From assembly GCA_028688415.1 (NCBI GenBank), contig JAQTYF010000001.1, positions 144,627 through 208,626 of the forward strand: a stretch of DNA of 64,000 nt, written 5' to 3'. Both the position numbers and the translations under genes were made by a program. The DNA is from Candidatus Moraniibacteriota bacterium. GTDB lineage: Bacteria > Patescibacteriota > Minisyncoccia > Moranbacterales > UBA1568. Position 1 is the stretch's first letter. The number at the start of each line of letters is the position of its first letter. Below the pieces are notes generated by a model. It worked only from the letters and a program-made list of their open reading frames with translations. It had not been told where the DNA came from and did no database searches. Of this stretch, positions 2,069-51,301 are shown piece after piece.

Positions 2069-2867
2069 ATTTTTTTCTATATCTTATAAGTCTGCCTTCA
2101 GCTTGTTTTATTAAATTTGTATTATTTCTTATATGAGTAACTCGCCAGATCCAAAAGTCGATACCGGCAAATATAATCCAATCTTTCGCTTCTTTTCCCA
2201 GTGTAAGTGATGTTTGCCCGATTTTATTATATTCATGTATGAAGTGTTTGAGTCCAGTTAAAGTTTGAAGAGGTATTAGTCCAGACCAATAGAGTTTTGC
2301 GATATCAAAATAAGGAGAAGAATATGTTGCTTCATCGAAGTCAATCAGAAAGATTTCCCCTGAAACTTTGCGTAAATTGGAGAGGGTTATATCGCCATGC
2401 GTTAAAGAAGATGTACTTTTTGATTTTGTATAGCGACTGATACGTTTGATAAGTTGATGAATATCTATATCTATTATTTTTTTGATATCTGTGGCGTGTT
2501 GTTGTAAATGTCGAAATCTCTTTTCAATGAGTCTTCGAGGAGTCTGTTTTTTGATTTTGTGTAAACGAGAGAGCGTTTGAGCCAAAGATGTTACATCGTT
2601 TTTTGTGAAAGATCGGAGTCCTGTTCCTACAGATGTCATAATGATGTAGGGCCTTCCTTCTGTCGATCCATTTTTGATAAATTTTGGCATGTAATCAAAT
2701 CCAGAATTGAAAGCAGAAATTTCAGATTTATAGTAGGATTTTTCGGAATAAATTTTAAGGATAAGGCCATGTTTTTTGTCTTGATAGACATCGTTAGCGA
2801 AGCCACCTTTACGCACGGTGAAGCCCTCCGGTATGTGAGATATATTTGTTAGGTTATTTGCTTTCAT
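2058..2867 (-). CDS. aminoglycoside/choline-kinase-like phosphotransferase (APH family)
   Basis: HGDITLSNL catalytic loop (HGDxxxxN) and LIDFDEA (Mg-binding DxD-like) typical of APH/ChoK protein-kinase-like fold. Confidence 0.6.
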   Translation of the reverse strand: MKANNLTNISHIPEGFTVRKGGFANDVYQDKKHGLILKIYSEKSYYKSEISAFNSGFDYMPKFIKNGSTEGRPYIIMTSVGTGLRSFTKNDVTSLAQTLSRLHKIKKQTPRRLIEKRFRHLQQHATDIKKIIDIDIHQLIKRISRYTKSKSTSSLTHGDITLSNLRKVSGEIFLIDFDEATYSSPYFDIAKLYWSGLIPLQTLTGLKHFIHEYNKIGQTSLTLGKEAKDWIIFAGIDFWIWRVTHIRNNTNLIKQAEGRLIRYRKKYGH

Positions 2868-2917
2868 TGGTTTTTTATTATAGTATATACGTATTATTAT
2901 ATAATAAATACAGAATT

Positions 2918-3472
2918 ATGAATACGTCACTTTTTCATAGAATTCAGCAAGAAAAGGCTCCTGAGATCTTATTCCTCTTGGTTGAGATCAGTCAGGGTGA
3001 TTACAATAAATATGAGTATAACCATGATATTGGTGTCCTTGAAGTTGATCGTGTGCTCTATGGACCAATGTTTTACCCAATTAATTACTGCGATGTTCCA
3101 GGAACTTGGAACGATGGGGATAAAGACCCTCTTGATGCCCTTCTCTTTAGCAGCAAACCGATTGTTCCGGGCGCTATGGTTACAGGAAGAGTTATTGGTG
3201 CAATGGAGATGATCGATAATGGCGAAATTGATCATAAGATTGTTTGTGTAAATGCAAAAGATCCTCGCTTTGATCACGTGAAGAAGATTGAAGATCTGAC
3301 ACCGTATCAACGCAAAGATGTCGTAACCTTTTTTGAGCTTTACAAAATTCCTCAGACAGGTAAAGATACCACGACAGTTGGAAAGTTTATGGATTTTGAT
3401 GAGGCTGCTGTATTTATTCAGAAATGTATAGATGCATATAAAGAGAAATTCGGAAACATACAAGGTAATTAG
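2918..3472 (+). CDS. ppa: inorganic pyrophosphatase (family I)
   Basis: DYNKYEYNHDIG...YPINYCDVPGTWNDGDKDPLDALLF matches soluble PPase active-site signature (DGDPLDVLV region). Start chosen at ATG 2918, since the longer ORF overlaps the convergent kinase gene. Confidence 0.85.
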   Translation: MNTSLFHRIQQEKAPEILFLLVEISQGDYNKYEYNHDIGVLEVDRVLYGPMFYPINYCDVPGTWNDGDKDPLDALLFSSKPIVPGAMVTGRVIGAMEMIDNGEIDHKIVCVNAKDPRFDHVKKIEDLTPYQRKDVVTFFELYKIPQTGKDTTTVGKFMDFDEAAVFIQKCIDAYKEKFGNIQGN

Positions 3473-7078: not shown

Positions 7079-8506
7079 ATGATGACACAAGATTTCAAGA
7101 AAGACGTTCGATTCGATAAGAAAATGCTCATAATCGGTGGTGGATTTATCGGACAAGGAGTCTTGCCTCTCATACTGAAACATATCGATATCAAGCCAGA
7201 GCAGATATCAATCATCACTGCTGACGAACGAGGCAAAGAAACAGCTGCCTATTACGGTATACCGTTTTCTATCAATCCGATTTCCAAAGAAAATTATCGA
7301 GAAGTACTTGATCCACTTCTCTCTCCTGGAGATTTCTTGCTCAATCTCTCATCTGATATAGAGAGTACGCTTATCGTGGATTTCTGTAGCGAACGAGGGA
7401 TACTCTATCTCGATACTTGTATCGACTCATGGCTTGGAGAAAGTACCAACCCAGCACTTTCTGTTTCACAGCGATCTCTCTACAAATTGCGAGAACAAGC
7501 TATCAAGCTCAAAGAGAAATGGGGGAATACAAATGCTACTTCGGTACTCGCTCACGGAGCCAATCCTGGTATTGTATCGCACCTCGTGAAACAAGCACTT
7601 CTCAATATTGCAAAAGATGAAGGAAGAGATGTAGTCATCCCACAAACGAGAGAAGAATGGGCACGCCTCTCCCAATCACTCGGGATCCGGGCTATCCATG
7701 TCGCAGAGCGTGATACGCAGATTCCTACAGAACGAAAAAAAGTAGGTGAATTCATCAATACCTGGTCTATCGATGGATTGGTCGGTGAAGGACTCCAGCC
7801 AGCAGAGCTCGGATGGGGATCGCATGAGAAACATCTCCCTGTCGATGGGAGTAGACACACGTTTGGTGATCAGTCTGCTATCTATTTGAACAAACCAGGA
7901 GCATCAGTACGTGTCCGCACCTGGCTCCCTCTCGCTGGTCCACAGATCGGATATCTCATCACACACAATGAAGCTATTTCCCTCGCGAGTTATCTGACTC
8001 TCGGAACAGGGGAGAATCCAGAATATCGTCCGACAGTACACTATGCTTATCACCCTTGTGATGATGCGGTACTTTCGATTACAGAACTCGAAGAATCCAA
8101 TTGGAAAATTCAGGAACAAAAACGATCGATCACTGATGAAATTGTTTCGGGTATAGATGAACTCGGTGTTCTCTTGATCGGGAACAAACAGGGTGTGTAC
8201 TGGTTCGGATCACGACTCGATATCCATACTGCACGACAGCTCGCGCCATACAATTCTGCGACATCACTGCAGGTAGCTGCCGGTGTCGTAGCGGGGATGA
8301 TATGGGCGATGCGTCATCCAGAGAGTGGGATAGTCGAAGCAGAAGAAATGGATTTCAGAGAAGTGCTCGATATTGCTAGTCCATACTGGGGAGAGCTCGT
8401 CGGCGAATACAGTGATTGGGATCCGACGATAGGACGGAACACCCTTTTTCCCGAAGATATCGATACAGAAGATCCCTGGCAGTTCAAGAATTTCCGCGTA
8501 GTATAG
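7079..8506 (+). CDS. hss: homospermidine synthase (saccharopine-dehydrogenase-like NAD enzyme)
   Basis: 475 aa; N-terminal Rossmann motif MLIIGGGFIGQGVLPLILKH and overall length/organisation match bacterial homospermidine synthase. GC (~50%) clearly above neighbours. Confidence 0.65.
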   Translation: MMTQDFKKDVRFDKKMLIIGGGFIGQGVLPLILKHIDIKPEQISIITADERGKETAAYYGIPFSINPISKENYREVLDPLLSPGDFLLNLSSDIESTLIVDFCSERGILYLDTCIDSWLGESTNPALSVSQRSLYKLREQAIKLKEKWGNTNATSVLAHGANPGIVSHLVKQALLNIAKDEGRDVVIPQTREEWARLSQSLGIRAIHVAERDTQIPTERKKVGEFINTWSIDGLVGEGLQPAELGWGSHEKHLPVDGSRHTFGDQSAIYLNKPGASVRVRTWLPLAGPQIGYLITHNEAISLASYLTLGTGENPEYRPTVHYAYHPCDDAVLSITELEESNWKIQEQKRSITDEIVSGIDELGVLLIGNKQGVYWFGSRLDIHTARQLAPYNSATSLQVAAGVVAGMIWAMRHPESGIVEAEEMDFREVLDIASPYWGELVGEYSDWDPTIGRNTLFPEDIDTEDPWQFKNFRVV

Positions 8507-8865: not shown

Positions 8866-8986
8866 TAGTTATTTTGTACAATAGCTAGTAGGGGTATTTG
8901 TAATATTTTCACAGATTGACGAAAAACCGTTCTTATGATATTGTTTTCTTGCCATTATATCAATGGTGTTTTTAGGAGAATATCTC

Positions 8987-9106
8987 ATGAAGCAAGGCCT
9001 TTTCGGTGGTTCTGGTGGTCACGGCAATGGAAATGGTGGCTCTGGTGGCCAACGTGGTGGCGGTGGCGGTAGCACCGGTGGCGGTTCCGGGACTCGTGGC
9101 AAATAA
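8987..9106 (+). CDS. glycine-rich small peptide (39 aa), MKQGLFGGSGGHGNGNGGSGGQRGGGGGSTGGGSGTRGK
   Basis: Not in the ORF track (<60 aa). AGGAGA RBS at 8974-8979, 7 nt before ATG 8987; TAA stop at 9104-9106; lies 55 nt upstream of the M16 peptidase gene. Confidence 0.35.
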   Translation: MKQGLFGGSGGHGNGNGGSGGQRGGGGGSTGGGSGTRGK

Positions 9107-9161
9107 GTTCATCTGCCAAATCGCGTAATCTGCCAGTATGGCCTCGATCATCATTGTGTGA

Positions 9162-10460
9162 TTGAGGCCATTTTATTTTTTCGATAAATACTCTATACTT
9201 CAAACTATGCAAGTATCTCATTTCGAAAATATACTCGAAGGGAAGGGAGGGAAGTTCCTTTCCATACACTGTCCACATCTGCAGGTGTCGATTGCTTCTG
9301 TATGGTTCGAAGCTGGTTCGATATATGATCCTTTGGGCAAAGAAGGATTGGCACATTTTTTCGAACATTTGCTCTTGCAGAAAACAAAAAAAGAGCCTTC
9401 TCGAACACAGAGACTCTATACTCTCGAATCTCGTGGAATAGATTTTTACGCCTACACGAACAAAGACTCAGCTTACTATTACCATATTCAAGAACCAGAG
9501 AAAACAAAAGAAAGCCTCGGATTACTCGCGCTTGGTATTGCAGACTTCGTTTTCGATGAAACCGATATCGAGAAAGAGAGAAATGTGATTCTTTCAGAGA
9601 AAGACACGTATGATGGAAATCGGGATGAGAAAGTGTGGGATTTTCTCTTCGATGGTTTGTATCATGGAAGTGTTTTTGCTCATAATCCGTTCGGAGATGC
9701 CCATTCGATTAGTTCTATTACGAAAGAAGATATAGAAAAATTTTATCGAGAATACTATAATCTCGAGAACGCTGTGTGGGTCATTCTCTCTCCGCAAGTA
9801 TCTGGTGCAGATGAGAAAATACATCTTGAGGAAACCTTACGTCCTTTTGTTGATGCAAGCGAGAAAGTGTCAATCGATCATGATGCGAGAGAAACAATGG
9901 GAAGTGTCCATGATCAGAGGATAGTTGCCTCATCAGAAGATACATCATTTCTCGTAGCTGAAGCATTTCGTACGACGGATATTTTTGATCAAGAAAATAT
10001 TCTTCGTATCGATCTTCTCCGTTCTATCATCGCCTCTGGGTGGATTTCTTGGGCAAATAAAATACTACGTACCGAGAAAAGTCTCATCTATTGGGCACGC
10101 AGTGTTTTCAGTCAATTTCATGATAGGGGATATGTAGCTTTCCTCTTTGATGTGCAAAATTCTTCCAAGACTGAAGCCATCACCCTCTTCGACAGATTGA
10201 TAGAAGATTCGAAGGATATCGAAAAAATGAGTGAACATCTGGATGCACACAAGAACGCTTTTGCAACACGATTTCTCCGCGTGTATCATAACCCAGAAGA
10301 TCTCTTGTGGTGGTATGGATACCCTGCTTTATTTGGTATTGTCAAAGAGTCTCCCAAAGAATATTTGCATCAACTGAAACAATTGAAAGCAGAAGAGCTC
10401 GTTTCTGTCGCAGAAAAAACTTTTACGAAGGAAAAGAGGAGTGTCATAGAGATTAGTTAG
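9162..10460 (+). CDS. M16-family zinc peptidase (pitrilysin/insulinase-like), active-type subunit
   Basis: HFFEH inverted zinc-binding motif (HxxEH) near the N-terminus, plus downstream glutamate-containing region typical of M16. Alternative start at 9207 (MQVSHF). Confidence 0.75.
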   Translation: MRPFYFFDKYSILQTMQVSHFENILEGKGGKFLSIHCPHLQVSIASVWFEAGSIYDPLGKEGLAHFFEHLLLQKTKKEPSRTQRLYTLESRGIDFYAYTNKDSAYYYHIQEPEKTKESLGLLALGIADFVFDETDIEKERNVILSEKDTYDGNRDEKVWDFLFDGLYHGSVFAHNPFGDAHSISSITKEDIEKFYREYYNLENAVWVILSPQVSGADEKIHLEETLRPFVDASEKVSIDHDARETMGSVHDQRIVASSEDTSFLVAEAFRTTDIFDQENILRIDLLRSIIASGWISWANKILRTEKSLIYWARSVFSQFHDRGYVAFLFDVQNSSKTEAITLFDRLIEDSKDIEKMSEHLDAHKNAFATRFLRVYHNPEDLLWWYGYPALFGIVKESPKEYLHQLKQLKAEELVSVAEKTFTKEKRSVIEIS

Positions 10461-12787: not shown

Positions 12788-14512
12788 ATGGATTTTAATA
12801 TAATTACGAACAGTGAGATTTGTATTGCGAATACACAACAATACTTAACAGGACTCGTCTATTATTCTCATTTTCCGATGATCATACTGTCTTTATTTTT
12901 TGGATTTTTTGTATTTTTAAAAAATAAAAGTTCGTTAGCGTCAAAATGTTTACTGGGTATTACGTTCTTCTTTTCTTTATGGCTTGTTTTTGATTTTATT
13001 TTGTGGAAAAGTAGCAATAGTAGTTTGCTTATGTTTTCTTGGGCTATACTAGGTGTATTTGAAGCACTCTTTTTCATTCTAGGTTTATATTTTATATATA
13101 CATTCATTGATAAAAAAGATGTTTCCAATAGTATAAAATTCATTTTTTTACTTCTTTCTTTGCCAGTTCTCTTTCTGACTCCAACGACATTTAACTTATC
13201 AAATTTTGATATCATAAATTGTGTTCCCGTTGAATCAGGGATATCTTTGGACTACGTTATTTCTTTGAAATTGATTATTTTATTGTGGATTTTTATTCTG
13301 TTGATAGTGAAATACCGGAAGCCTCCTGTAGACATATCAAGATTACAAATTTTTCTGTTAGGTTTAGGTATAATGTTGTTTCTATCTTCGTATTTTGTTT
13401 TGTCTTACGTTTCTGATTATTTGTACAATGCAGGTTATGAATGGGGGTATCAGGTTGAACAGGGTGGAATTCTCGCTATGGGTATTTTTCTTGGGTTTCT
13501 TAGTTATCTCATCGTTAAATTCAAGGCATTTGATATCAAACTGATCGGAGCACAAGCGTTGGTGTTAACACAATTTGCCCTTATTAGCTCAATGTTCTTT
13601 TTTGCCACGGTACTTATAAGTCGCGTCCTCATTGGAGTGACACTCTTTGGTACGACTATTGCTGGTTGGTATCTGATCCGATCAGTGAAGGCAGAAATCA
13701 AACGCAAGGAAGAGCTCGAAAAGATATCGCATACACTGATGGTGGCGAATGAACGATTGAAAGAGCTCGATGCCGCCAAATCAGAATTCATCTCTATTGC
13801 ATCACACCAGCTCCGTACACCGCTCACGGCTATCAAAGGTTACCTCTCACTCTTGCTCGAGGGCTCCTATGGGCCAGTCTCTCCTCAGGTACTCGATATT
13901 CTGAACAAACTCTACGGTGTGAACAATCGTCTCGTCCATCTCGTGGAGGATCTGCTCAATGTCTCTCGTATCGAAGCAGGGCGTATCCAATACAGTTTTG
14001 CTCCGACACAGATCGAGCCTATCCTCGTTGAACTCGTCGATATGTTCCTTTCTCCAGCTCAAGAAAAGAATCTGACTATTGATATCCATCTCTCCAAGCA
14101 TCCGCTCCCTCTCATCACGATGGATCCAAACAAAATCAAAGAAGTGGTGTCCAACCTCATCGACAATGCAGTGAAATACACCAAAGTAGGTGGTGTGACA
14201 GTCACACTCCAGAACACGCCTGAGGTCGCCCGTATCATCATCTCGGATACTGGTATCGGTATTCACGAAAGTGACAAGAAGAACCTCTTCCAGAAATTCC
14301 TTCGAAGCAAGGAAACAACGAAAATGGTAGTCTCTGGAGCGGGTCTCGGTCTCTACGTCGGCAAGAGTTTTATCGAAGCACACGGAGGCAAGATCTGGGC
14401 AGAATCCGATGGTCCAGATAGAGGCTCTCGCTTCATCATCGAACTCCCGATCAAAAACACTCATATTCAGATCGGTACGTCTGATGAACCTACTTCTGTC
14501 GAAAAAGAGTAA
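12788..14512 (+). CDS. membrane sensor histidine kinase (multi-TM N-terminus, HisKA + HATPase_c)
   Basis: H-box SHQLRTPLTAIKGYLSLL; N, G1 and G2 boxes (DNAVKYT, DTGIGI, GAGLGL). GC rises in the kinase-domain half. Confidence 0.85.
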   Translation: MDFNIITNSEICIANTQQYLTGLVYYSHFPMIILSLFFGFFVFLKNKSSLASKCLLGITFFFSLWLVFDFILWKSSNSSLLMFSWAILGVFEALFFILGLYFIYTFIDKKDVSNSIKFIFLLLSLPVLFLTPTTFNLSNFDIINCVPVESGISLDYVISLKLIILLWIFILLIVKYRKPPVDISRLQIFLLGLGIMLFLSSYFVLSYVSDYLYNAGYEWGYQVEQGGILAMGIFLGFLSYLIVKFKAFDIKLIGAQALVLTQFALISSMFFFATVLISRVLIGVTLFGTTIAGWYLIRSVKAEIKRKEELEKISHTLMVANERLKELDAAKSEFISIASHQLRTPLTAIKGYLSLLLEGSYGPVSPQVLDILNKLYGVNNRLVHLVEDLLNVSRIEAGRIQYSFAPTQIEPILVELVDMFLSPAQEKNLTIDIHLSKHPLPLITMDPNKIKEVVSNLIDNAVKYTKVGGVTVTLQNTPEVARIIISDTGIGIHESDKKNLFQKFLRSKETTKMVVSGAGLGLYVGKSFIEAHGGKIWAESDGPDRGSRFIIELPIKNTHIQIGTSDEPTSVEKE

Positions 14513-20259: not shown

Positions 20260-21090
20260 ATGCCAAAGATTCTTTTCGTCGAAGATGATCCATTTATTGC
20301 TGAAATTTATAAGAAAAAATTTGCGAGCTCTGGTTTTGATGTGCTCAATGTCATAACTGGGAAATCAGCACTCAAGGAAGCTCTCGAACAGAAATTCGAT
20401 TTGATATTGCTTGATCTCGTGATCCCAGAACTGAGCGGTACAGAAGTGCTTCGTGAATTACGTCACAATCCTGAATACGATCCGAATATGAAAATTGTTG
20501 TGTTCAGTAACCTGAGCTCACAAGAAGATCGTGATGAGTGTCTTGGTCTCGGTGCCAATGGATTTATCTCCAAGACAGAATTTTCTCCATCGGAAGTTGT
20601 CGTCGAAGTCAATCGCTTCCTGAGTCAATTCAGTGAACAGGCCAAGAATTCTGCTCGTTTCGAAAAACAAGGTACAGCAGAACATGAAGATGCTCCGGTA
20701 GTAGAGGGAAAAAAGATTCTCTTTGTTGAAGATGAGGCAGTGTTTATCGATATGTTTGGCAAGCGACTCCGAGATGAAGGATATGTCGTGACGACATGTC
20801 GTGACGGTGTCTCTGGACTACAGGCAGCACTTGATGGGACATTTGATCTCGTGATTTCAGATGTGATGATGCCAGGAATGGATGGTCGCGAACTCGTGAT
20901 GAAGTTGAAAGAAGCAGAATCAGAAAACAATACTCCGATATTTCTGTTCTCCGCATCACTCGACGATAGAGATGTTCAGGCACTTATTGATTCCAAGATT
21001 GCCGAGGGAGTATTTCTCAAGACACAAATCACTCCTAGTGAACTCACTTATGCCGTCAATGATTTTTTCAAGGAGCAATCAGAGAAATAA
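20260..21090 (+). CDS. response regulator with tandem receiver domains (REC-REC), no output domain
   Basis: Two CheY-like modules (ILFVEDD...LILLDLVIP and ILFVEDE...LVISDVMMPGMDG) with conserved Asp/Lys positions. Confidence 0.8.
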   Translation: MPKILFVEDDPFIAEIYKKKFASSGFDVLNVITGKSALKEALEQKFDLILLDLVIPELSGTEVLRELRHNPEYDPNMKIVVFSNLSSQEDRDECLGLGANGFISKTEFSPSEVVVEVNRFLSQFSEQAKNSARFEKQGTAEHEDAPVVEGKKILFVEDEAVFIDMFGKRLRDEGYVVTTCRDGVSGLQAALDGTFDLVISDVMMPGMDGRELVMKLKEAESENNTPIFLFSASLDDRDVQALIDSKIAEGVFLKTQITPSELTYAVNDFFKEQSEK

Positions 21091-26461: not shown

Positions 26462-27871
26462 ATGGAAGCCAAGAAACGTGTTCTCATCGCTGAAGCATCA
26501 AAATATATTGGAAAAGAGGTGAAACTGTCTGGTTGGATAGATGTACGCCGTGATCATGGTAAACTCATCTTTCTCGATTTGCGCGATATGAGCGGTAAAG
26601 TGCAGATGGTAGTCCTCCCGAATCATCCAGAGGCCATAGCAGTCGCACAGACCCTCCGTTCTGAGTGGGTGGTGGAAATAGTAGGGAGTGTGAATCCTCG
26701 CCCAGAGAAACTTGTGAATAGCGAGCAGGAGAATGGTGCTATCGAAATAGAAGTGCTCTCGGTGACTGTTCTCAATACTGCCGAGACACCAGCATTCGAT
26801 GTGTCTTCTGATGGCAAAGAAATCAGTGAAGAACTCCGTCTCAAATATCGCTATCTCGATTTGCGTCGTGATCGGATGCAGAAGAATATGCGGAACCGTC
26901 ATCTCGTGACGAATTTCGTCCGCAATTTCTATACCCAAGAAGGATTCGTAGAAATCGAAACGCCCAATATGACCAAGTCGACTCCGGAAGGATCACGTGA
27001 CTATATCGTTCCTTCTCGTATTGATAAAGGAAAATTCTATGCCTTGCCACAATCCCCACAACAGTACAAGCAACTGCTGATGGCCGCTGGTTTCGAGAGA
27101 TATTTCCAAGTGGCTCGCTGTTTCCGTGATGAAGATACCCGCGGTGATCGTCAGCCAGAGTTCACGCAGATTGATATGGAAATGAGTTTCGTCACGCAGG
27201 AGGATGTGATGCAGATCAACGAAAAACTCATCACAGAATTGGTACAAAAAATCTATCCCGAGAAAAAAATCCAGGAACTTCCTTTTCCACGTTTGACATA
27301 CCAAGAAGCAATGGAGAAATATGGCTCAGACAAACCAGATATCCGTACCGATAAGAATGATCCAAATCTTCTTGCTTTTTGTTGGGTGATAGACTTTCCT
27401 TTTTTTGAGAAAGATGATAAAGGTGGCTGGACATTTACACACAATCCATTCTCCGCTCCGAAACCTGAGTTTATGAATGACTTGATGGAGAAGAAAAACA
27501 TCGAAAGTATCGGAGCAGCACAATATGATATGGTACTCAATGGCTACGAAATCGGTGGTGGAGGAATACGAAATCATAACCCGGAAGCTCTCAAAAAAGT
27601 GTTTGAAGTGATGGGATATTCCGCCGAAAGAATTGAGAAAAATTTTCATCATATGCTCGAGGCTCTCGCTTCGGGGACACCACCGCACGGAGGACTGGCA
27701 TTCGGATTTGATCGATTGATGATGCTCCTTCAGAATGAACCGAACATTCGTGAAGTTATTCCTTTTGCAAAAACTGGTGAAGGACGTGATCCAATGATGG
27801 AATCACCATCCGAAGTCTCTCTTGACCAGCTCATCGAACTCGGCCTCCGTATCACGAAAGAAGAGAAGTAG
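26462..27871 (+). CDS. aspS: aspartyl-tRNA synthetase, bacterial type lacking the GAD insertion domain
   Basis: Class II motifs: FVEIETP, QSPQQYKQLLM, FRDEDTRGDRQPEFTQIDMEMSF, GGGGIRNHN; 469 aa. Confidence 0.9.
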   Translation: MEAKKRVLIAEASKYIGKEVKLSGWIDVRRDHGKLIFLDLRDMSGKVQMVVLPNHPEAIAVAQTLRSEWVVEIVGSVNPRPEKLVNSEQENGAIEIEVLSVTVLNTAETPAFDVSSDGKEISEELRLKYRYLDLRRDRMQKNMRNRHLVTNFVRNFYTQEGFVEIETPNMTKSTPEGSRDYIVPSRIDKGKFYALPQSPQQYKQLLMAAGFERYFQVARCFRDEDTRGDRQPEFTQIDMEMSFVTQEDVMQINEKLITELVQKIYPEKKIQELPFPRLTYQEAMEKYGSDKPDIRTDKNDPNLLAFCWVIDFPFFEKDDKGGWTFTHNPFSAPKPEFMNDLMEKKNIESIGAAQYDMVLNGYEIGGGGIRNHNPEALKKVFEVMGYSAERIEKNFHHMLEALASGTPPHGGLAFGFDRLMMLLQNEPNIREVIPFAKTGEGRDPMMESPSEVSLDQLIELGLRITKEEK

Positions 27872-27895
27872 TTTCGGCTCTTAAAGAGAATCTTT

Positions 27896-28633
27896 ATGAA
27901 GACTATCGTCGCTATTGGAGGAGGGGAAATAGGAGAATTGGAAACTCTCTCTATTGATCGTGCGATTGTGAAACTTACAAAAAAGGATCATCCGAATGTG
28001 CTTTTCATCCCAACGGCGAGTAGCGATTCTACTGGATATGCAGAAACTTTTCAGAAAGTGTACGGGAAGAAACTCGGTTGCGATATCGATGTCCTCTATC
28101 TTTTGAAAGAAAAACTTTCTAAAAAAGAAATTGAGAAGAAAATTCTCTCAGCTGATATTATTTATGTCGGCGGTGGAAACACGCTCCGGATGATGAAAGC
28201 TTGGCGAAAAAATGGTGTGGATGGATTGCTCAGAAAAGCTCATAAAAAAGGGATAATTTTGGCAGGTCTCAGTGCAGGATCCATTTGTTGGTTCCGTTAT
28301 GGATCGAGCGATGCTCGGAGATTTGCAAATCCGAAAGATACTTCTTTTATGCGGGTACGTGGTCTTGGTATCATTCCACTGACTGTCAGCCCACACCATA
28401 TTCGCGAGAAAAAACTCCGAGATGCTGGATTGGTAAAATTGATAAAGAGAACTCCTGGTATCGGACTTGCTCTTGATGATTATACAGCGATTCTTATTCA
28501 AGATGATCGATACGAGATATTGAAATCAAAAAAAGATGTTGGAATCGTCAAAGTGTTCCGGAATAAGGGAAAGATAGAACAGATTCCTCTCAAATCATCA
28601 GGAACACTCGTGGAATTATTGGAGAAGAAATAA
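27896..28633 (+). CDS. peptidase E / S51 family (cyanophycinase-like dipeptidase)
   Basis: VGGGNT...ILAGLSAGSICW (Ser nucleophile context) and overall ~240-aa organisation. Confidence 0.65.
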   Translation: MKTIVAIGGGEIGELETLSIDRAIVKLTKKDHPNVLFIPTASSDSTGYAETFQKVYGKKLGCDIDVLYLLKEKLSKKEIEKKILSADIIYVGGGNTLRMMKAWRKNGVDGLLRKAHKKGIILAGLSAGSICWFRYGSSDARRFANPKDTSFMRVRGLGIIPLTVSPHHIREKKLRDAGLVKLIKRTPGIGLALDDYTAILIQDDRYEILKSKKDVGIVKVFRNKGKIEQIPLKSSGTLVELLEKK

Positions 28634-28637
28634 ATAT

Positions 28638-29213
28638 ATGAATATCGAATATGAAGCGACGTTTCCTGATATTGAGAAGGAAGAGATGCGTCTTATATTA
28701 GAAAAATCAGGGGCGACGCTGATACGACCAGAGTTTCTTCAGAAGCGAGTCGTATTTGCTCTCCCGACAGGACATGAAATCACAGGTGGGTGGGCGCGTG
28801 TACGTAATGAGGGAAACAAAATAACGATGAGTCTCAAAATAGTCGATGGAGACAAGATCGAGAATCAACGAGAGATCTGTCTGACTGTCGATAGTTTCGA
28901 GCAAGCAGAACTGTTTCTCACCACTATCGGATGCAGGAAGAAGTCATACCAAGAAACCAAGAGAGAATTGTGGATGATGGGTGACACCGAAATCACTATC
29001 GATGAATGGCCTTTTCTCCGACCGTTTCTGGAAATTGAAGGGAAGTCTGAGGAGGTTGTGAAACAAGTGACAGAGAAACTTGGTTTGGATTATAGAGAGG
29101 CGCTTTTTGGCGCAGTCGATATCATCTACATACATCAGTATCCCCATCTCACTTTTGATCGTATCAACAAGACGCCTCGTATCGTATTTGAAGGTGAGAA
29201 TCCTTTTTTATGA
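28638..29213 (+). CDS. CYTH-domain protein (triphosphate tunnel metalloenzyme / class IV adenylate-cyclase-like)
   Basis: N-terminal IEYEATF (ExExK-type start), REICLTVD, LEIEG acidic beta-strand pattern. Confidence 0.5.
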   Translation: MNIEYEATFPDIEKEEMRLILEKSGATLIRPEFLQKRVVFALPTGHEITGGWARVRNEGNKITMSLKIVDGDKIENQREICLTVDSFEQAELFLTTIGCRKKSYQETKRELWMMGDTEITIDEWPFLRPFLEIEGKSEEVVKQVTEKLGLDYREALFGAVDIIYIHQYPHLTFDRINKTPRIVFEGENPFL

Positions 29214-29557
29214 AAAACTATGCGACGAAATTCATCGGGAGTATAGTTGATATACAAATCGACAGACCTCTGGGTTCGAAACATCCAAAACACGGATTTG
29301 TGTACGAAGTGAATTACGGATTTGTTCCTGATACTCTGGCACCAGATGGAGAAGAAATCGACGCGTATTTCCTCGGAATAAACGAACCCGTAGAGAAACA
29401 GAAGGGGAAATGTATCGCTGTTATCCATCGGACCAATGATGACGATGATAAACTCGTCATGATCCCTCAGTCGATGAATGATATGAGTGATGAAGATATC
29501 GAAAAGCTCACCCATTTCCAAGAGCAGTTTTTCACATCAGAAATAGTGAGGAAATAA
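29210..29557 (+). CDS. inorganic-pyrophosphatase-like mini protein (N-terminally truncated family I PPase fold)
   Basis: EVNYGFVPDTLAPDGEEIDAYFLG aligns to PPase NYGFIPQTLxxDGDPLDVLV; TNDDDDKLV aligns to TDEAGEDAKL. Lacks the first ~50 aa that carry several catalytic residues. Confidence 0.45.
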   Translation: MKNYATKFIGSIVDIQIDRPLGSKHPKHGFVYEVNYGFVPDTLAPDGEEIDAYFLGINEPVEKQKGKCIAVIHRTNDDDDKLVMIPQSMNDMSDEDIEKLTHFQEQFFTSEIVRK

Positions 29558-29563
29558 ATCTCA

Positions 29564-30499
29564 GTGAATCTATCGATAATTATGAATAATTCAGATTTTC
29601 AGACAAGACTGTGTGGTCGTATTGAAGAGAAACTTAAAATACGAATTGTCGATATGCACATTCCTCCACAAGGAATGTCGAGCAAAGTATTTTTTGTGAA
29701 ATCTGATACAGAGAAGAAATACGCTATTAAATACGGCAATGACGTAACGAAAGATGTTTCTGCTTTGAAATTGATTATGAAGGAGGGTATTGATATCCCT
29801 GTTCCACGATTGTATGCGTCATTCCTTTTTGAAGAAACTCCCATAATTATTCTAGAAAAAATAAACTTTCCTTTGCTAGAATCGGTCTCAAAAGATCAAA
29901 TGCCAAAGTACATTCCATCGATGATTGGAAACTTGAGGAAATTGCATTCAATAAAATTTGATAGATCAGGGTCGCTCATTGATTCAAAAAGTGAAAAATC
30001 GTGGAAGGAGATGTTGTCCGCGATATTTGATGGTGATGAATTTGATTGGAATGAAATTGCCAAGCGAGAAGGGCTCGATACGGAGTTGGTCCTGTCATCA
30101 GTGGAAAAAATAAGAGAAAAAATAAACAACACGGTTTTTGAAGAAGGAAATTATTCTCTTCTTCATACGGATTTTAATCAGAGAAATTTATTTGTTGATC
30201 CGAAAAGTGATGAAATAACAGGAATTATTGATTGGGAGGAGGCTTTATTTGGTGACCCTCTCTATGATTTTGCTCGAGTACGTATGTTTATGTGGCATTT
30301 TGGCTTTGATAACTCGTCTATTCAAGCCTACTATGATTTGATGAACTATACAGATGAACAGAAAGCGCTCGAAAATCTATATCGGCTTGTCCTGGTTATT
30401 CAGTATCTCGCATGGTATTCTGAAGATCTAAGTGAGTTTGCTCGAGGAAGAATCAAATTGCATCAGGATTATTTGCGGACGTATAATTGGGAAAAATAG
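29564..30499 (+). CDS. aminoglycoside-phosphotransferase-like kinase (APH/ChoK fold)
   Basis: LLHTDFNQRNLFVD (HxDxxxxN) and GIIDWEEALFGDPLYD (DWE). Confidence 0.6.
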   Translation: MNLSIIMNNSDFQTRLCGRIEEKLKIRIVDMHIPPQGMSSKVFFVKSDTEKKYAIKYGNDVTKDVSALKLIMKEGIDIPVPRLYASFLFEETPIIILEKINFPLLESVSKDQMPKYIPSMIGNLRKLHSIKFDRSGSLIDSKSEKSWKEMLSAIFDGDEFDWNEIAKREGLDTELVLSSVEKIREKINNTVFEEGNYSLLHTDFNQRNLFVDPKSDEITGIIDWEEALFGDPLYDFARVRMFMWHFGFDNSSIQAYYDLMNYTDEQKALENLYRLVLVIQYLAWYSEDLSEFARGRIKLHQDYLRTYNWEK

Positions 30500-30990
30500 A
30501 AATGGAAAATATGATTATTTTTGTAAATGGATCAATAAATTCTGGGAAAAGTACGGTGGCAAAGTTACTTGCTTTGAAATTGCCTAGAACAGCTTTGCTC
30601 GAGATTGATGCATTATGTGAATGTATCGCATGGATGCCTCTTGCAGAGGCGATTCCTATCAATTTAGAAAATGCCATTTCTGTGATTAAAAATTTTGTAA
30701 AAAGGGATATAAATGTTGTTGTTCCTTATCCTCTTTCACAAAAGAATTATGATTTTCTTATTCAGGAATTGAAATTATTGAATCAAGATATTTTTGTTTT
30801 TACTCTGAATCCGCCACTAGAAATAGCTTTAACGAACAGAGGAGAACGAGAACTGACCGTAGAAGAGCAAGAAAGAATCAAATATCATTATGAAATCGGA
30901 ATCAATAAGCCAAACTTTGGTACAATTATTGATAACTCCAAACAAACACCAGAAGAAACAGTTGGAATAATTATGAAATCTATTGTATGA
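30487..30990 (+). CDS. small P-loop kinase (chloramphenicol-phosphotransferase-like / AAA_33-type)
   Basis: Walker A VNGSINSGKSTVAKLL; ~165 aa. Confidence 0.5.
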   Translation: MGKIEMENMIIFVNGSINSGKSTVAKLLALKLPRTALLEIDALCECIAWMPLAEAIPINLENAISVIKNFVKRDINVVVPYPLSQKNYDFLIQELKLLNQDIFVFTLNPPLEIALTNRGERELTVEEQERIKYHYEIGINKPNFGTIIDNSKQTPEETVGIIMKSIV

Positions 30991-31694
30991 AAAAGTATCC
31001 AGAAGTGACACTTGTGATTGATGTAGAAAAAGATATTGAGAACGCTACTTATTTTCTGAAGTATGAAAAGAATCAATTCTTTCGAGACTGCTTTTTTCGT
31101 GGCGATTTGAATTTTATTTTGAGTGAAAAGTTTTCGAAGAAGGAACAGGGAAAAGTTATCGAAGCATACGTACGAAATTTCTTCAAAGAACATAAGAAAG
31201 AAATCGAAAAAGGACTACTTCTCGTAAAGCGAGACTGGAAAAAGAAAGAAAAGAAATATCTCGCGCTTATCGAGAAGATGTTCCGTGGACGTAAATGGCT
31301 AGAAGGGGAATATAGAGGTATTGTAAGTATTTTCAGGATGTATCCCAGGTGGATAGAACAAAAAACATTTTTCTTTCCTTATGCCCACCAGAAACCAGGA
31401 TTTGCAAACGGTGTCATCGCGCACGAGATGCTTCATTTTTTCTTCTTTGATTATATCTTTGAGAAGTATGGCCTCAAAGAGGGTTCAAAAATAAAAGGAA
31501 AAGAATCAGACTATATCTGGAAAGTTTCAGAAGTATTCAATGTTGTGATGGAAAATTGGAAGCCGTATACGGATATCATCGGACGTGCAGGGAAGCCGTA
31601 TCCTGGACAAGAGAAAATGTATAAAAAAATGCAGAAGCAATGGTTTAAAAATCAGGATATTGATTGGTTACTCGATCAGTGGCTTCAGAAATAG
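30987..31694 (+). CDS. hypothetical protein with HExxH motif (possible zinc metallohydrolase)
   Basis: VIAHEMLHFFF contains HEMLH. Confidence 0.4.
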   Translation: MKKYPEVTLVIDVEKDIENATYFLKYEKNQFFRDCFFRGDLNFILSEKFSKKEQGKVIEAYVRNFFKEHKKEIEKGLLLVKRDWKKKEKKYLALIEKMFRGRKWLEGEYRGIVSIFRMYPRWIEQKTFFFPYAHQKPGFANGVIAHEMLHFFFFDYIFEKYGLKEGSKIKGKESDYIWKVSEVFNVVMENWKPYTDIIGRAGKPYPGQEKMYKKMQKQWFKNQDIDWLLDQWLQK

Positions 31695-31756
31695 AAAAAA
31701 ATCCCTCGGTACAGTTTTGTACACGAGGGATGTTTCTTGATGGAGGTGAAACGAGA

Positions 31757-32359
31757 TCAATGGCTCAGATGTATCTGAACGGGAATGAATTGATCAGCCC
31801 CTTTACGCTTGATCGTTGTTGCGGTGAGCCTCTCGAAATATTCTTTTCCAAATATCTTGTCGAGCCGTTCTTCCAGGTAGACCTTGCGAATGGTCGCAAA
31901 TACCTTTCGGAACCCACCCGTTTTGGCGTAGGTGTATACGGCCAAGTGAAGGGCGAAGAACACGAGCTTACTCCCAGATGTATTGATCATCCGAGAAATT
32001 TCGATGGCATCCCGAGGGATGGCTATCTGCTCAAATTGACTCAATCCTTCTTCCATAGGGAGGGGATTGCCGAGCAAGAGTTTTTTGTGGATGATACGAC
32101 ATCCAGCCACCGCTCGATCACCCTTCATCACAACAATGAAGATTGATGCGAGGTCGTAGCGATCCCGCTCCTCACCCCGTGGTTCTTCCCAATGATGCTT
32201 CTTGGCGAAGACATCATCACGAAGCTCATAAAAGAGCTTTGCTAGTTTCCGATCCCTTGGTGCGACCGGATTGACACGGATGATCCTCATTCCCAAAAGG
32301 ACGAGAATCATAGCCAGTATCTTGCTGATAGTCACAAATGACCCAATGAAGAATTTCAC
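31757..32359 (-). CDS. LuxI-family acyltransferase (autoinducer-synthase / N-acyl amino acid synthase-like GNAT)
   Basis: LRDDVFAKKHHWEEPRGEERDRYD fits LuxI block RxxVFxxxxGWxx(n)ExDxYD; AGCRII and EISR also conserved. Likely start at MRIIRV (32290). ~50% GC. Confidence 0.5.
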   Translation of the reverse strand: MKFFIGSFVTISKILAMILVLLGMRIIRVNPVAPRDRKLAKLFYELRDDVFAKKHHWEEPRGEERDRYDLASIFIVVMKGDRAVAGCRIIHKKLLLGNPLPMEEGLSQFEQIAIPRDAIEISRMINTSGSKLVFFALHLAVYTYAKTGGFRKVFATIRKVYLEERLDKIFGKEYFERLTATTIKRKGADQFIPVQIHLSH

Positions 32360-32562
32360 GATTTCACCTCCAGGTTGTTAAAGTACTAAACCATACATTA
32401 TACACCAAAAACGCATAAAAGTCAAGTCTTTTTTCATGCGGAAAGAAGGGAAAATATGACACATAAACGTTCTTTTTCTGTAGGGGGTTGCTTAAATATC
32501 GTGTTTGAGATAAGATAATTCAAGTACCGAAGAGGCATATAATAGATTAGAAGATTAGCGTT

Positions 32563-33003
32563 ATGAAAGTGATACTTTTGCAGGATGTAGAAAAATTGGG
32601 AAAAGCAGGGGAAATCAAAGAAGTGCGTAGTGGATACGGATTCAATTTCTTGTTGCCTGAGGGACTGGCAGAGTTTGCTACCCCAACAGCTATCAAAGAA
32701 ACGGAAAAAATGGTCGCAAGACAGAAGAAAGAGACTGAATCAATGCTCGCAGTGTCCAAAGAAACTGCGGGAGCATTGGCAGGCAAGAAAATAACTATCA
32801 AGACCAAGGCAGAAAATGGAAAACTGTTTGGTTCTATTGGTCGTGAAGAAATCGCTTTGGCACTGGAAGCAGCTGGTACAAAGATCGATGCCAAGCACAT
32901 CGTTCTCGAAAAAGGTTTCAAGGAAGTTGGTGTATTTACTGTCGAAGCTCATTTCGGACATGGAGTGAAAGCTTCTTTTGAAGTGACGATCAAGTCAGAA
33001 TAG
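32563..33003 (+). CDS. rplI: 50S ribosomal protein L9
   Basis: MKVILLQDVEKLGKAGEIKEVRSGYGFNFLLPEG, the classic L9 N-terminus. Confidence 0.9.
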   Translation: MKVILLQDVEKLGKAGEIKEVRSGYGFNFLLPEGLAEFATPTAIKETEKMVARQKKETESMLAVSKETAGALAGKKITIKTKAENGKLFGSIGREEIALALEAAGTKIDAKHIVLEKGFKEVGVFTVEAHFGHGVKASFEVTIKSE

Positions 33004-48098: not shown

Positions 48099-49982
48099 AT
48101 GAAAGATATCCGTACAATTTATTTGGAATTTTTTGAATCGAAAAACCATAAACAAGTTCCTTCGTCACCACTCGTTCCAGAGAACGATCCGACGACACTT
48201 TTCACGGGTTCTGGTATGCAACCGATTCTCCCATATCTCCTCGGAGCAAAGCATCCGATGGGTTCTCGTATTACTGATGCTCAAAAATGTTTTCGTGCTC
48301 AGGATATTGAAGAAGCGGGGGATAATCGTCACACGACTTTTTTTGAAATGCTCGGAAATTGGTCATTTGGTGATCCGACTGCAACCGATGCTATTGGTGA
48401 ACAGGGTTATTTCAAACAGGAGCAGATTACCTGGATGTGGCAATTTCTGACAGAAGGCATTGGTCTCGATCCGAAAAATCTCTACTTTACATGTTTTCGA
48501 GGAAACGAAGATCTCAATATTCCCAGGGATATAGAATCGGCTCTCCTCTGGCAGAAACTCTTTCGAGAAAAGGGTATTGAGGCAATGATAGGGGAAGATC
48601 CGGAAAAAAACGGAATACGAACAGGTGAAAAAATATTTTATTATTCTGAAAAGAAAAACTGGTGGAGTCGTGCGGGTGTACCAGGAAATATGCCGGTCGG
48701 TGAACCAGGAGGACCAGACACGGAAATGTTCTGGGATTTTGGTGAATCACAAGGGCTCCACGAACAATCCATTTGGAAAGATGAACCGTGTCATGTGAAT
48801 TGCGATTGTGGTCGATTTATGGAAATCGGCAACAATGTGTTTATGGAGTACAAAAAAACGACGACTGGTTTCGAAAAACTCGCTCAGAAAAATGTCGATT
48901 TTGGTGGAGGTCTCGAACGGCTTGTCGCAGCGCAGGGGAATAATCCAGATATGTTTCTCGGATATATCTTTGATACGCTTCGTCAGACTATCGAAGAACT
49001 TTCTTCGAAGAAATATGGTGAAAATAAAGAATACACGTATGCTTTCCGCGTCGTGATGGATCATATTCGTGCTTCGATATTTCTCATTGCAGACGGAGTA
49101 GTGCCCTCCAACACTGATCAGGGATATGTTCTTCGCAGACTCTTGCGACGAGCGGTGCGGTATGCTGATATACTCGGAATTTCTCCTCAATCACTGTCAC
49201 GATGTGTCCCGGCTATTATCAAAGAATATGCACAAGCATATGGATATCTGGAAGAGAAGAAAGGGTATATTGTTACCATCATAGATGGAGAAGAATCAAA
49301 ATTTCGAGAAACGCTGACACGTGGTATGAGAGAGCTCGAAAAACGTCTCGAAAAAAAGAGTCTGACAGGAAAAGATGCTTTTGAACTTTTTTCAACATAC
49401 GGATTCCCTCTCGAAATGACAGAAGAAATGGTGAATGAAAAAGGTGTGACTCTTAATCGAGAAGAATTCAAAAAAGAATTTACGAAACATCAAGAACTCT
49501 CACGTTCTGCAAGTGCCGGGAAGTTCAAGGGTGGACTTGCCGATCACAGTGAAATGTCAGTGAAATACCATACGGCGACACATCTCCTTCAGCAAGCATT
49601 GAGAACTGTCCTCGGCAATCATGTTACTCAGAAAGGAAGCAATATTACATCAGAACGTATGCGATTCGACTTTTCTCATCCTGAAAAAATGACTGATGAA
49701 CAAAAAAAAGAAGTGGAGAATATTGTGAATGAAAAAATCGCCGAGAAACTTCTAGTGAGTTATGAAGATTTGCCAAAAGAAGAGGCAGAAAAACTCGGTG
49801 CCATCGGACTTTTTGAGGAGAAATATGGTGATAAAGTGCGTGTGTATAAAATAGGAGCATTCAGTCTTGAGTTTTGTGGTGGCCCTCACGTAGCCAATAC
49901 GGGTGATTTGGGGCATTTCAAGATTATGAAAGAAGAGGCTTGCTCAGCTGGAGTACGTCGTATCAAAGCCATTCTTGAATAA
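48099..49982 (+). CDS. alaS: alanyl-tRNA synthetase, short form (catalytic + editing domains, no C-Ala domain)
   Basis: TGSGMQP, FEMLGNWSFGD, editing HTATHLLQQAL...C at aa ~600. Confidence 0.9.
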   Translation: MKDIRTIYLEFFESKNHKQVPSSPLVPENDPTTLFTGSGMQPILPYLLGAKHPMGSRITDAQKCFRAQDIEEAGDNRHTTFFEMLGNWSFGDPTATDAIGEQGYFKQEQITWMWQFLTEGIGLDPKNLYFTCFRGNEDLNIPRDIESALLWQKLFREKGIEAMIGEDPEKNGIRTGEKIFYYSEKKNWWSRAGVPGNMPVGEPGGPDTEMFWDFGESQGLHEQSIWKDEPCHVNCDCGRFMEIGNNVFMEYKKTTTGFEKLAQKNVDFGGGLERLVAAQGNNPDMFLGYIFDTLRQTIEELSSKKYGENKEYTYAFRVVMDHIRASIFLIADGVVPSNTDQGYVLRRLLRRAVRYADILGISPQSLSRCVPAIIKEYAQAYGYLEEKKGYIVTIIDGEESKFRETLTRGMRELEKRLEKKSLTGKDAFELFSTYGFPLEMTEEMVNEKGVTLNREEFKKEFTKHQELSRSASAGKFKGGLADHSEMSVKYHTATHLLQQALRTVLGNHVTQKGSNITSERMRFDFSHPEKMTDEQKKEVENIVNEKIAEKLLVSYEDLPKEEAEKLGAIGLFEEKYGDKVRVYKIGAFSLEFCGGPHVANTGDLGHFKIMKEEACSAGVRRIKAILE

Positions 49983-50061
49983 GGAATATAACTTATCTGA
50001 AAAAGAAAAAACCCTACGATGCAGTTGCATAATAGGGTCTTGTTGTCTTAGGCCTTAGACC

Positions 50062-50811
50062 TTAGGCACACGAGTGAGAAAGGATACTGAACGCTTGTTG
50101 ATATCCTTTGACTCCAATCCAAACGGGGAGAAAATATTCTTTATTCCCTGTCCGACTTGTTTTCTCGAGAGCCTTTCCAGGGAGTGTCTCATAGCAATCG
50201 AAACCGCTATGCCGATATCGCTCCAATAGACGTCGCCGTATGGTGACGTAAAAGCCTGTCACTCCTCGTTCATGAAGATACGTGAGGAGATGGCCGAGGA
50301 ACTCGAGAGAATGCTTTGCAGACTCGGGAGTCCCTGTGATTCTGGAGATCTCGACGGAACCGAGTGGTACCGATTGAGAATTATCCAGGAGTTTGCTGAT
50401 GGGCAAATCGAGTGTGGGTGTGCTCCAAATGAGACGACACCCAGCACCTACTTGCCCTAGAGCATTGGCGAGGAGAACATAATCGCATCGACCGAAACGG
50501 TCGTAGCCATCCTGTTCCATGCCATCAGCACGTACTTCTTCCCACCCGTATTTGATGGCGAATTGTTCGTGTCGACGCCGGTAGTGGTCCTCTACCAAAC
50601 ATGTTTCCCGATCGGTTTTGAGACCCGATCGGATGATGAATGGTGTATAGTGTGTTGCCACTATAGAAGGACCCTCGTTTTTTTCGTTTGTTTCTTTGAA
50701 ACAATGCATGATATGACTCCAATGTAAGCTGTATGCCTTCCCCGGGTAAGGGGATACGAAAAAATATGGCTCACCGGGAGCAGTTTTGTTAAGAAACTGA
50801 CTATACATCAT
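50062..50811 (-). CDS. LuxI-family acyltransferase paralogue (autoinducer-synthase / N-acyl amino acid synthase-like)
   Basis: RRRHEQFAIKYGWEEVRADGMEQDGYD (RxxxFxxxxGW...ExDxYD), AGCRLI, EISR; start taken at MMYSQ (50811). ~52% GC. Confidence 0.5.
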   Translation of the reverse strand: MMYSQFLNKTAPGEPYFFVSPYPGKAYSLHWSHIMHCFKETNEKNEGPSIVATHYTPFIIRSGLKTDRETCLVEDHYRRRHEQFAIKYGWEEVRADGMEQDGYDRFGRCDYVLLANALGQVGAGCRLIWSTPTLDLPISKLLDNSQSVPLGSVEISRITGTPESAKHSLEFLGHLLTYLHERGVTGFYVTIRRRLLERYRHSGFDCYETLPGKALEKTSRTGNKEYFLPVWIGVKGYQQAFSILSHSCA

Positions 50812-50918
50812 ACTCCTTTTATAGCGTTTTGTCAATAGGACAATACAAATATAACACATTTTTTGCCTTTTATAAAGGGAAATAATACGTATGATGTACA
50901 GTACTGTTCCAATGCTGG

Positions 50919-50947
50919 TTGACAGTTTTCGAGGAATAGCGTATAGT
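50919..50947 (+). promoter_or_regulatory. sigma70-like promoter TTGACA-17-TATAGT upstream of rplU
   Basis: TTGACA 50919-50924, 17-nt spacer, TATAGT 50942-50947. Confidence 0.4.
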
Positions 50948-50992: not shown

Positions 50993-51301
50993 ATGCTCGC
51001 GATTATCAGAACTGGCGGAAAGCAGTACAAAGTTTCCGAAGGACAGAAAGTGAAAATTGAAAAATTGGAAAAAGAAATCGGTGATACGATTGCTTTTGAA
51101 GTATTGTTTGTTGGTGATGAGAAGTCCGTACAGGTTGGTACTCCAGTTTTGGAAAAGGCTGTTGTCGAAGGAAAAGTGATCGATCAAGATCGTCATGACA
51201 AAGTAAAAGGTATCAAACACAAGGCCAAGAAGCGTTATCTCGTACGTTTTGGTCATCGTCAACCATATACCGAAGTAGAAATTACCAAGATTACTGCATA
51301 A
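50993..51301 (+). CDS. rplU: 50S ribosomal protein L21
   Basis: MLAIIRTGGKQYKVSEGQKVKIEKL...RFGHRQPYT. Confidence 0.9.
   Translation: MLAIIRTGGKQYKVSEGQKVKIEKLEKEIGDTIAFEVLFVGDEKSVQVGTPVLEKAVVEGKVIDQDRHDKVKGIKHKAKKRYLVRFGHRQPYTEVEITKITA

Follow-up and report, generated by a model that had tools for sequence, protein, structure and literature searches.

The 64,000 nucleotides of a Candidatus Moraniibacteriota contig analysed here (hereafter the window) contain two paralogous genes, type A and type B, whose products, protein 1 and protein 2 respectively, are almost certainly divergent but intact homologues of the LuxI family. On the balance of the sequence comparisons, both enzymes probably make acyl-homoserine lactones (acyl-HSLs). 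The genes are genuine, divergent additions to a family already known, here in a lineage of the candidate phyla radiation (CPR), and automated annotation was already right, since both proteins are named acyl-homoserine-lactone synthase by NCBI (type A via an identical protein). The context added here is that there are two paralogues, that a genomic slot is conserved and that no LuxR was found in the window.

Comparison of the type A and type B proteins indicates 29% identity over ~180 residues (BLASTP E 3e-12; phmmer E ~1e-10), and a search of all six-frame ORFs of the window with phmmer and the family HMM identified no third paralogue. Both proteins carry the motif block R47..VF51.....W57......E64.D66.YD69, then AGCR85-88(I/L)I and E120-I-S122-R123 (protein 1 numbering), which is invariant across 14 orthologues. 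In a joint alignment, R47, F51, W57, E64, D66, D69, R88, E120, S122 and R123 of both proteins occupy the same columns as in RpaI, BjaI, LasI and EsaI (10/10 positions), the signature set of the characterised enzymes being R, F, W, E/D, D, D, R, E, S and R (R24, F28, W34, D45, D48, R68, E97, S99 and R100 for the EsaI/LasI type). Among 70 relatives, E120, S122 and R123 are invariant and R47, D66, D69, G86 and R88 are at least 90% conserved. Likely functional LuxI synthases have been told from look-alikes by whether they possess all of the conserved residues (PMC7862692, PMC7567580). A previous sequence-only reading of this DNA had proposed two LuxI/autoinducer-synthase paralogues, and both the relationship between the proteins and their family-specific residues bear this out; the motif block that it described is likewise present in both, except that the W-to-E spacing is 6 residues in protein 1 and not 7-8.

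Searches against curated families place the two proteins close to, though below, the formal limits of the family. As single sequences, type A scores 22.4 bits (E 1e-4) and type B 21.0-21.6 bits (E 2e-4) against Pfam Autoind_synth (PF00765), so that this check, which the sequence-only reading had proposed, returns matches that fall 1.6-3 bits short of the gathering cut-off of 24 bits, itself an operational rule. The same model is matched at E<=0.01 by 14/14 close orthologues (best 1.7e-7), as opposed to 0/14 for FeeM, and several orthologues carry precomputed PF00765 matches. Against the NCBIfam AHL-synthase models (NF010408 TraI and NF052393) the scores are 27, 25.6 and 19.5 bits for cut-offs of 292 and 250, and the window genes are not orthologues of TraI-type enzymes. 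Relatives are few: a search of 5.8 billion proteins recovered only 5 of type A and 9 of type B, two of these 14 being named by NCBI as acyl-homoserine-lactone synthase of Candidatus Moranbacteria/Moraniibacteriota, and the three species representatives that a scan of a genome collection recovered, and no others, all belong to Moraniibacteriota. When 1.84 billion representatives were searched exhaustively with HMMER, 640 relatives emerged at E<=1e-3. A third word-indexed homologue search, with a 70-sequence profile, added little. When the PDB was searched with a profile of the 14 orthologues (A1), BjaI, RpaI, LasI, EsaI, MesI and TofI were matched at 2.4e-10 to 8e-4. With a profile of 70 of the 640 relatives (A2), the same six acyl-HSL synthases were matched far more strongly (RpaI 2.6e-18, BjaI 2.9e-18, LasI 4e-16, EsaI 8e-16, MesI 1e-14 and TofI 4e-12), followed by a generic GNAT at 5e-7.

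Modelled confidently with AlphaFold2 from the family alignments (protein 1, pLDDT 87.9 and pTM 0.85; protein 2, pLDDT 88.5 and pTM 0.83), both proteins are predicted to adopt the LuxI-type GNAT fold. In Foldseek comparisons with the PDB, ranks 1-8 for the protein 1 model are acyl-HSL synthases, led by RpaI, BjaI, LasI and MesI, and so are ranks 1-10 for the protein 2 model, led by TofI, LasI, BjaI, MesI and EsaI. The leading matches have TM 0.58-0.68 and an E-value margin of ~1-3 orders of magnitude over generic GNATs, which begin at rank 9 for protein 1 and rank 11 for protein 2, with FeeM at rank 13 or 15; identity to the solved enzymes is only 16-21% among the fold matches of both models. 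Beyond the common fold, protein 1 has an extra N-terminal helix (residues 2-21) that is hydrophobic/amphipathic and conserved among type A relatives, the LuxI core beginning at ~residue 24, and protein 2 has a disordered N-terminus of 16 residues and an extra C-terminal helix (200-214). In summary, signature residues, profiles and fold all favour acyl-HSL synthases over a generic GNAT family lacking LuxI-specific residues.

By analogy with the solved LuxI enzymes, the N-terminal block of R47, F51, W57, E64, D66, D69 and R88 in protein 1 would form an S-adenosylmethionine (SAM) pocket, and the GNAT-type cleft would accept an acyl-phosphopantetheine thioester, that is, acyl-CoA or acyl-ACP. The E120-x-S122-R123 strand would support N-acylation of the SAM amino group, after which lactonisation would release the acyl-HSL and methylthioadenosine. 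The two paralogues presumably yield two different acyl products, and the recipient of the signal would be the host, neighbouring cells or a receptor of a non-LuxR kind. What the data show is homology to the family, the signature residues, the fold, purifying selection, vertical inheritance and the anatomy of the genes; from the likeness to the solved enzymes we infer the use of SAM, the acyl-HSL product and a signalling role. Counted in favour of an acyl-HSL product are the signature residues, the profile and fold rankings, dN/dS values of 0.08-0.12, the anatomy of the genes, their inheritance and the precedent of a functional solo LuxI synthase (PMC7862692); counted against it are the Pfam and NCBIfam scores below cut-off, the identity of 16-21%, the families co-matched among the relatives (see below), a window in which no LuxR, metK, MTA nucleosidase, ACP or acyl-CoA ligase was seen, and the usual lack of fatty-acid synthesis in CPR bacteria, a matter of general knowledge that obscures the acyl donor.

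Given these opposing points, it might be argued that the proteins are LuxI-fold N-acyltransferases whose acceptor is not SAM but an amino acid (FeeM/NasY-like or TIGR03694 type) or a lipid or peptidoglycan amine, in which case the product would be a membrane or surface lipid and not a diffusible lactone. The sub-threshold Pfam and NCBIfam scores are consistent with this, as is the fact that TIGR03694, at 29 bits, is the best NCBIfam match of protein 1. Many of the wider relatives co-match Acetyltransf_5 (48/70) or FeeM (17/70), which places the clade near the border with the N-acyl amino acid synthases. The window holds no LuxR, the conserved hydrophobic helix of type A could anchor the protein at the membrane and, as a matter of general knowledge, a lipid-scavenging CPR cell obviously needs acyl-transfer chemistry. 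Nevertheless, a non-SAM acceptor is unlikely, though well short of negligible, on several grounds. The TIGR03694 score of protein 1 is far below the cut-off of 111.95, protein 2 does not match that model, and the surroundings of either synthase gene, out to 10 kb, contain no exosortase or PEP-CTERM genes. FeeM (PF21926) and Acetyltransf_5 are matched by neither window protein at E<=1 in Pfam, and FeeM (2g0b) is absent at E<=1 from the search of the PDB with the A2 profile, in which the six acyl-HSL synthases stand at 1e-12 to 1e-18; in the fold searches FeeM ranks no higher than given above. Finally, the N-terminal residue set that is characteristic of acyl-HSL synthases is wholly invariant. 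Although FeeM/NasY and the TIGR03694 acyltransferase have a LuxI-like GNAT fold in common with the window proteins, assignment to the PEP-CTERM-associated or the FeeM-like branch, as the sequence-only reading had proposed, is therefore not supported. Should N-acyl amino acids or lipids be made after all, the genes would mark a switch of acceptor among LuxI-fold enzymes.

Each synthase gene forms, as read from its flanking sequence, its own transcription unit with a predicted promoter, Shine-Dalgarno sequence and terminator, divergent from a ribosomal-protein gene. As had been described, each is the sole minus-strand gene between two plus-strand genes. The type A gene (31757..32359, minus strand; 200 aa from a GTG start at 32359 by ORF call) diverges from rplI (32563-33003) and converges on an ORF of 235 aa with an HExxH motif (30987-31694). 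A Shine-Dalgarno sequence, GGAGG, can be read at 32367..32371 (minus strand), 7 nt 5' of the GTG, and upstream of it is a promoter-like site, TTGACT-17 nt-TATAAT (32397..32425, minus strand; 11/12 consensus matches), of which the -35 TTGAC and the extended -10 region TTTTTGGTGTATAAT are kept in the orthologous upstream region of locus L005. An imperfect palindrome around the -35 box, CGCATGAAAA...TTTTATGCG, was considered as an operator and dropped because it is not conserved in that region. A predicted intrinsic-terminator hairpin followed by U7 lies 3' of the stop codon (31695..31731, minus strand; RNA fold -22.3 kcal/mol, z -7.2, 0/200 shuffles as stable). Opposite the type A gene there is also an antisense ORF of 160 aa (31664-32146, plus strand), which is probably spurious.

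The type B gene diverges from rplU (50993-51301) and converges on alaS (48099-49982), and its start required a choice, given that the ORF is open to 50811 and to 50961. The gene is taken as 50062..50709 (minus strand), encoding 215 aa from the ATG at 50709, because the NCBI record of the product is the 215-aa version, the homologues are 180-225 aa long, a GGAG lies 7 nt 5' of this ATG and the other ATG, at 50811, shares nucleotides with the -10 element of a promoter-like site. The ATG at 50811 is thus probably too far upstream, and of the two minus-strand ORFs originally delimited, 31757-32359 and 50062-50811, the first stands as it was and the second is to be shortened at its start. The promoter-like site of type B, TTGACA-17 nt-TATGAT (50807..50835, minus strand; 11/12 matches), is back to back with one for rplU (50919-50947, plus strand; 11/12 matches), the function of both being putative. 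Between the convergent alaS and type B genes lies a predicted terminator hairpin with a U-run (50000..50041, minus strand; RNA fold -20.3 kcal/mol, z -3.5, 0/200 shuffles as stable).

The composition of the genes does not mark them as recent arrivals. The GC content, which the sequence-only reading had put at 50-52%, is 48.1% for both genes as there delimited and 48.9% for the 215-aa version of type B, in a window of 39.5% GC. The mean of the 37 putative genes located beyond 25 kb is 42.4 +/- 3.5%, and recR has 48.6%; the synthase genes are thus at the high end of the local range (~+1.7 sd) without standing outside it. Across orthologous loci the LuxI-like gene has a GC content of 45-58% where the host locus has 36-57%, and in the GC-rich locus L019 it is GC-poorer than its surroundings (52% vs 57%). 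Given this behaviour, the GC excess belongs to the gene family, seen here against the background of an AT-rich host, and does not point to a recent import. Along the window as a whole there is a step in GC from ~33-37% in the first ~25 kb to ~42% in the remainder, with local peaks of 45-49% over the saccharopine dehydrogenase (7200-8400) and over the part that encodes the catalytic half of a histidine kinase (13800-14400).

The genomic position of type B is strongly conserved. A LuxI-like gene occupies the alaS-rplU slot in seven distinct and diverged Moranbacteria genomes (the window, equivalent to L018, and L009, L011, L013, L019, L020 and L022), with proteins 29-75% identical to type B of the window, and the surrounding block reads CorA-cysS-dnaB-recR-rplU-[gene]-alaS-...-ftsA-pfkB-eno-pgk. 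The locations of type A are more variable: it is next to rplI-pyrG in the window and, with a protein of 80% identity, in L005, lies in the rplX (L24)/rplE (L5) interval of the spc ribosomal-protein cluster in L007 (10001-10600, plus strand; 50% identity), occupies the rplU-alaS slot in L019 and is found elsewhere in L021. A LuxI-like gene therefore adjoins a ribosomal-protein gene (rplI, rplU or rplX/rplE) in every context seen except L021, and the clade lies in Moranbacteria-type housekeeping neighbourhoods in every genome with visible context. A rough tree obtained by neighbour joining (178 columns, 100 bootstraps) joins types A and B with their relatives in a clade of 100% bootstrap (type A 94%, type B 67%), to which neither the LasI-like group nor BjaI/RpaI belongs, and types A and B are each other's closest relatives. 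The dN/dS of 0.08-0.12 was obtained against orthologues, with dS near saturation. Because of the synteny, the 100%-bootstrap clade and a dN/dS of ~0.1, these comparisons indicate an old duplication inside a Moranbacteria-centred lineage, followed by vertical inheritance under purifying selection.

The sequence-only reading had instead regarded both genes as GC-rich insertions between core genes, probably acquired by horizontal transfer. A recent event of this kind would fit their 48-49% GC in a window averaging 39.5%, their orientation opposite to both neighbours, the mainly proteobacterial distribution of LuxI genes (general knowledge) and the absence from L005 of a block of ~six genes beside type A. 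However, it is very improbable, given the slot filled in seven genomes at such divergent identities, the rplI slot common to the window and L005, the monophyly of the clade and its distinctness from LasI-like and BjaI/RpaI sequences, the equal GC of recR and the GC-poorer gene of L019; furthermore, the window contains no tRNA genes. A transfer of ancient date, into the ancestor of the whole clade, may have taken place. The block in question lies between asnS and type A (about 26500-31700), is absent at that position in L005 and comprises a peptidase S51, a CYTH protein, a pyrophosphatase, an APH/fructosamine kinase, a P-loop kinase-like ORF and the 235-aa HExxH ORF, which has no Pfam match; a second APH and pyrophosphatase pair is present in the window at 2058-3472.

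Decay does occur in the family. The related contig L019, metagenomic and Moranbacteria-like, carries beside its type A-like gene a second LuxI-like ORF in tandem (8939-9619, plus strand; 226 aa, matched by the family HMM at E 6e-15). In this ORF the E.D..D block is gone, as are the Arg of AGCR and the Glu of EISR, and it is therefore a degenerate or neofunctionalised paralogue. It is scarcely credible, however, that the window genes are themselves decaying or non-enzymatic relics with no present catalytic role, a reading to which this copy and the partner genes not found in the window might lead, since both retain every signature residue as intact ORFs with conserved promoter and terminator, their dN/dS is ~0.1 and their models are confident and compact.

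If the two proteins are acyl-HSL synthases, as is preferred here, the nature of the acyl donor is the next consideration. CoA-dependent enzymes come first with the family profiles and with the protein 1 model, the ACP-dependent TofI and LasI with the protein 2 model. ACP-type enzymes bear a basic surface helix (LasI 146-173) that is absent in the CoA clade (Christensen et al., PMC4234381). In the corresponding segment, where the alignment is uncertain, 5-7 K/R are counted in the window proteins and their relatives, 1-2 in BjaI/RpaI and 2-3 in LasI/EsaI, and the basic residues of the window proteins are not at the columns of LasI K150/R154, subject to the same uncertainty. Given that the CoA-type and ACP-type indicators contradict each other, no donor is named. 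As a matter of general knowledge, CPR bacteria are mostly considered to be without type II fatty-acid synthesis, a point of difference from the hosts of ACP-dependent enzymes.

The CoA-dependent BjaI, RpaI and MesI (PDB 5w8a, 6wn0 and 6wns) have all signature residues in common with the window proteins and group with the window clade at 78% bootstrap in the rough tree; BjaI and RpaI are the best profile matches (2.9e-18 and 2.6e-18), and CoA-type enzymes are the best fold matches of protein 1. They differ in that the window proteins are only 16-21% identical to them, have no adjacent LuxR and possess the extra N-terminal (type A) or C-terminal (type B) helix, and in that the ACP-docking-type helix is nearly uncharged in BjaI/RpaI but strongly basic in the window proteins (criterion of PMC4234381). 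The ACP-dependent LasI, TofI and EsaI (PDB 1ro5, 3p2f and 1kzf) have the fold, the signature residues and a basic helix in common with the window proteins, and TofI and LasI lead the fold matches of protein 2, whereas their profile scores are weaker than those of the CoA type.

The sequence-only reading had looked to a LuxR-type or acyl-ACP partner as a check, and neither is found within the 64-kb window. No gene there has the Autoind_bind and GerE domains of a LuxR-type receptor in Pfam, none was seen within +/-7-10 kb of the gene in nine related loci, and the genes of the window likewise showed no metK, MTA nucleosidase, ACP or acyl-CoA ligase. Because no LuxR was found in the window, the proteins are predicted to be 'solo' synthases. 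A functional precedent is AgpI of Archangium gephyra, a solo LuxI synthase from a genome with no LuxR, which made C8- and C9-AHL in E. coli (PMC7862692). Like the window proteins, AgpI has all conserved residues, no cognate LuxR and a host outside the classical LuxI/LuxR set; unlike the window genes, which are deeply divergent and vertically inherited, it is close to proteobacterial LuxI, is thought to be horizontally acquired and occurs in one species only (PMC7862692).

AHL synthases are overwhelmingly proteobacterial, and the CPR, or Patescibacteria, are ultra-small, mostly uncultured episymbionts. The sequence-only reading had regarded a signalling or lipid-amino-acid capability in a reduced genome as unexpected. 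The surprise is weakened by the existing NCBI names and by a 2020 survey in which LuxI homologues with conserved key residues are predicted in reduced CPR genomes, some of them beside sensor kinases, and interspecies signalling is proposed (Bernard et al. 2020, PMC7567580). The LuxI taxa of that survey, in the portions of its text and supplement consulted, are Tagabacteria, Portnoybacteria, Vogelbacteria, Giovannonibacteria, WWE3 and Kerfeldbacteria; these portions contain no Moranbacteria LuxI entry and describe neither a paralogue pair nor the rplU-alaS slot, and the window genes differ from some of its examples in not being kinase-adjacent (PMC7567580). Further literature searches returned nothing specific. 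If acyl-HSLs are made, the LuxI family would be extended to a deep bacterial lineage in which the gene is ancestral rather than borrowed, and two clonable 200-aa genes would offer a testable handle on symbiont-to-host signalling.

A more far-reaching proposal can be entertained tentatively, with the odds against it: that this is a Moranbacteria-wide, vertically inherited LuxI-type clade, long kept in a fixed slot adjacent to ribosomal-protein genes and duplicated into two specificities, which would turn scavenged acyl-CoA or acyl-ACP into acyl-HSLs, or into a novel acyl signal derived from SAM, in cells without fatty-acid synthesis. The signal would address the host or neighbouring bacteria, or else a receptor other than LuxR would detect it, for instance the histidine kinase encoded at 12788-14512. 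Were this reading true, functional AHL-type signalling would be established for the CPR for the first time.

The kinase named here (plus strand, 574 aa) has a polytopic membrane domain without a Pfam match in its first ~300 residues, and the window also encodes a response regulator of 276 aa with two receiver domains and no output domain (20260-21090, plus strand). In L005 this pair is accompanied by SET-domain and saccharopine-dehydrogenase genes, and its distance from type A is 3-8 kb, as compared with 11-19 kb in the window; the pair is absent near type B in six other loci. A conserved linkage of kinase and synthase was rejected on account of this variable distance and of the absence near type B, and the kinase is for the same reasons only a lead as a candidate non-LuxR receptor. 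Opposite the histidine-kinase gene lies an antisense ORF of 205 aa (13847-14464, minus strand), which has no Pfam match and is probably spurious.
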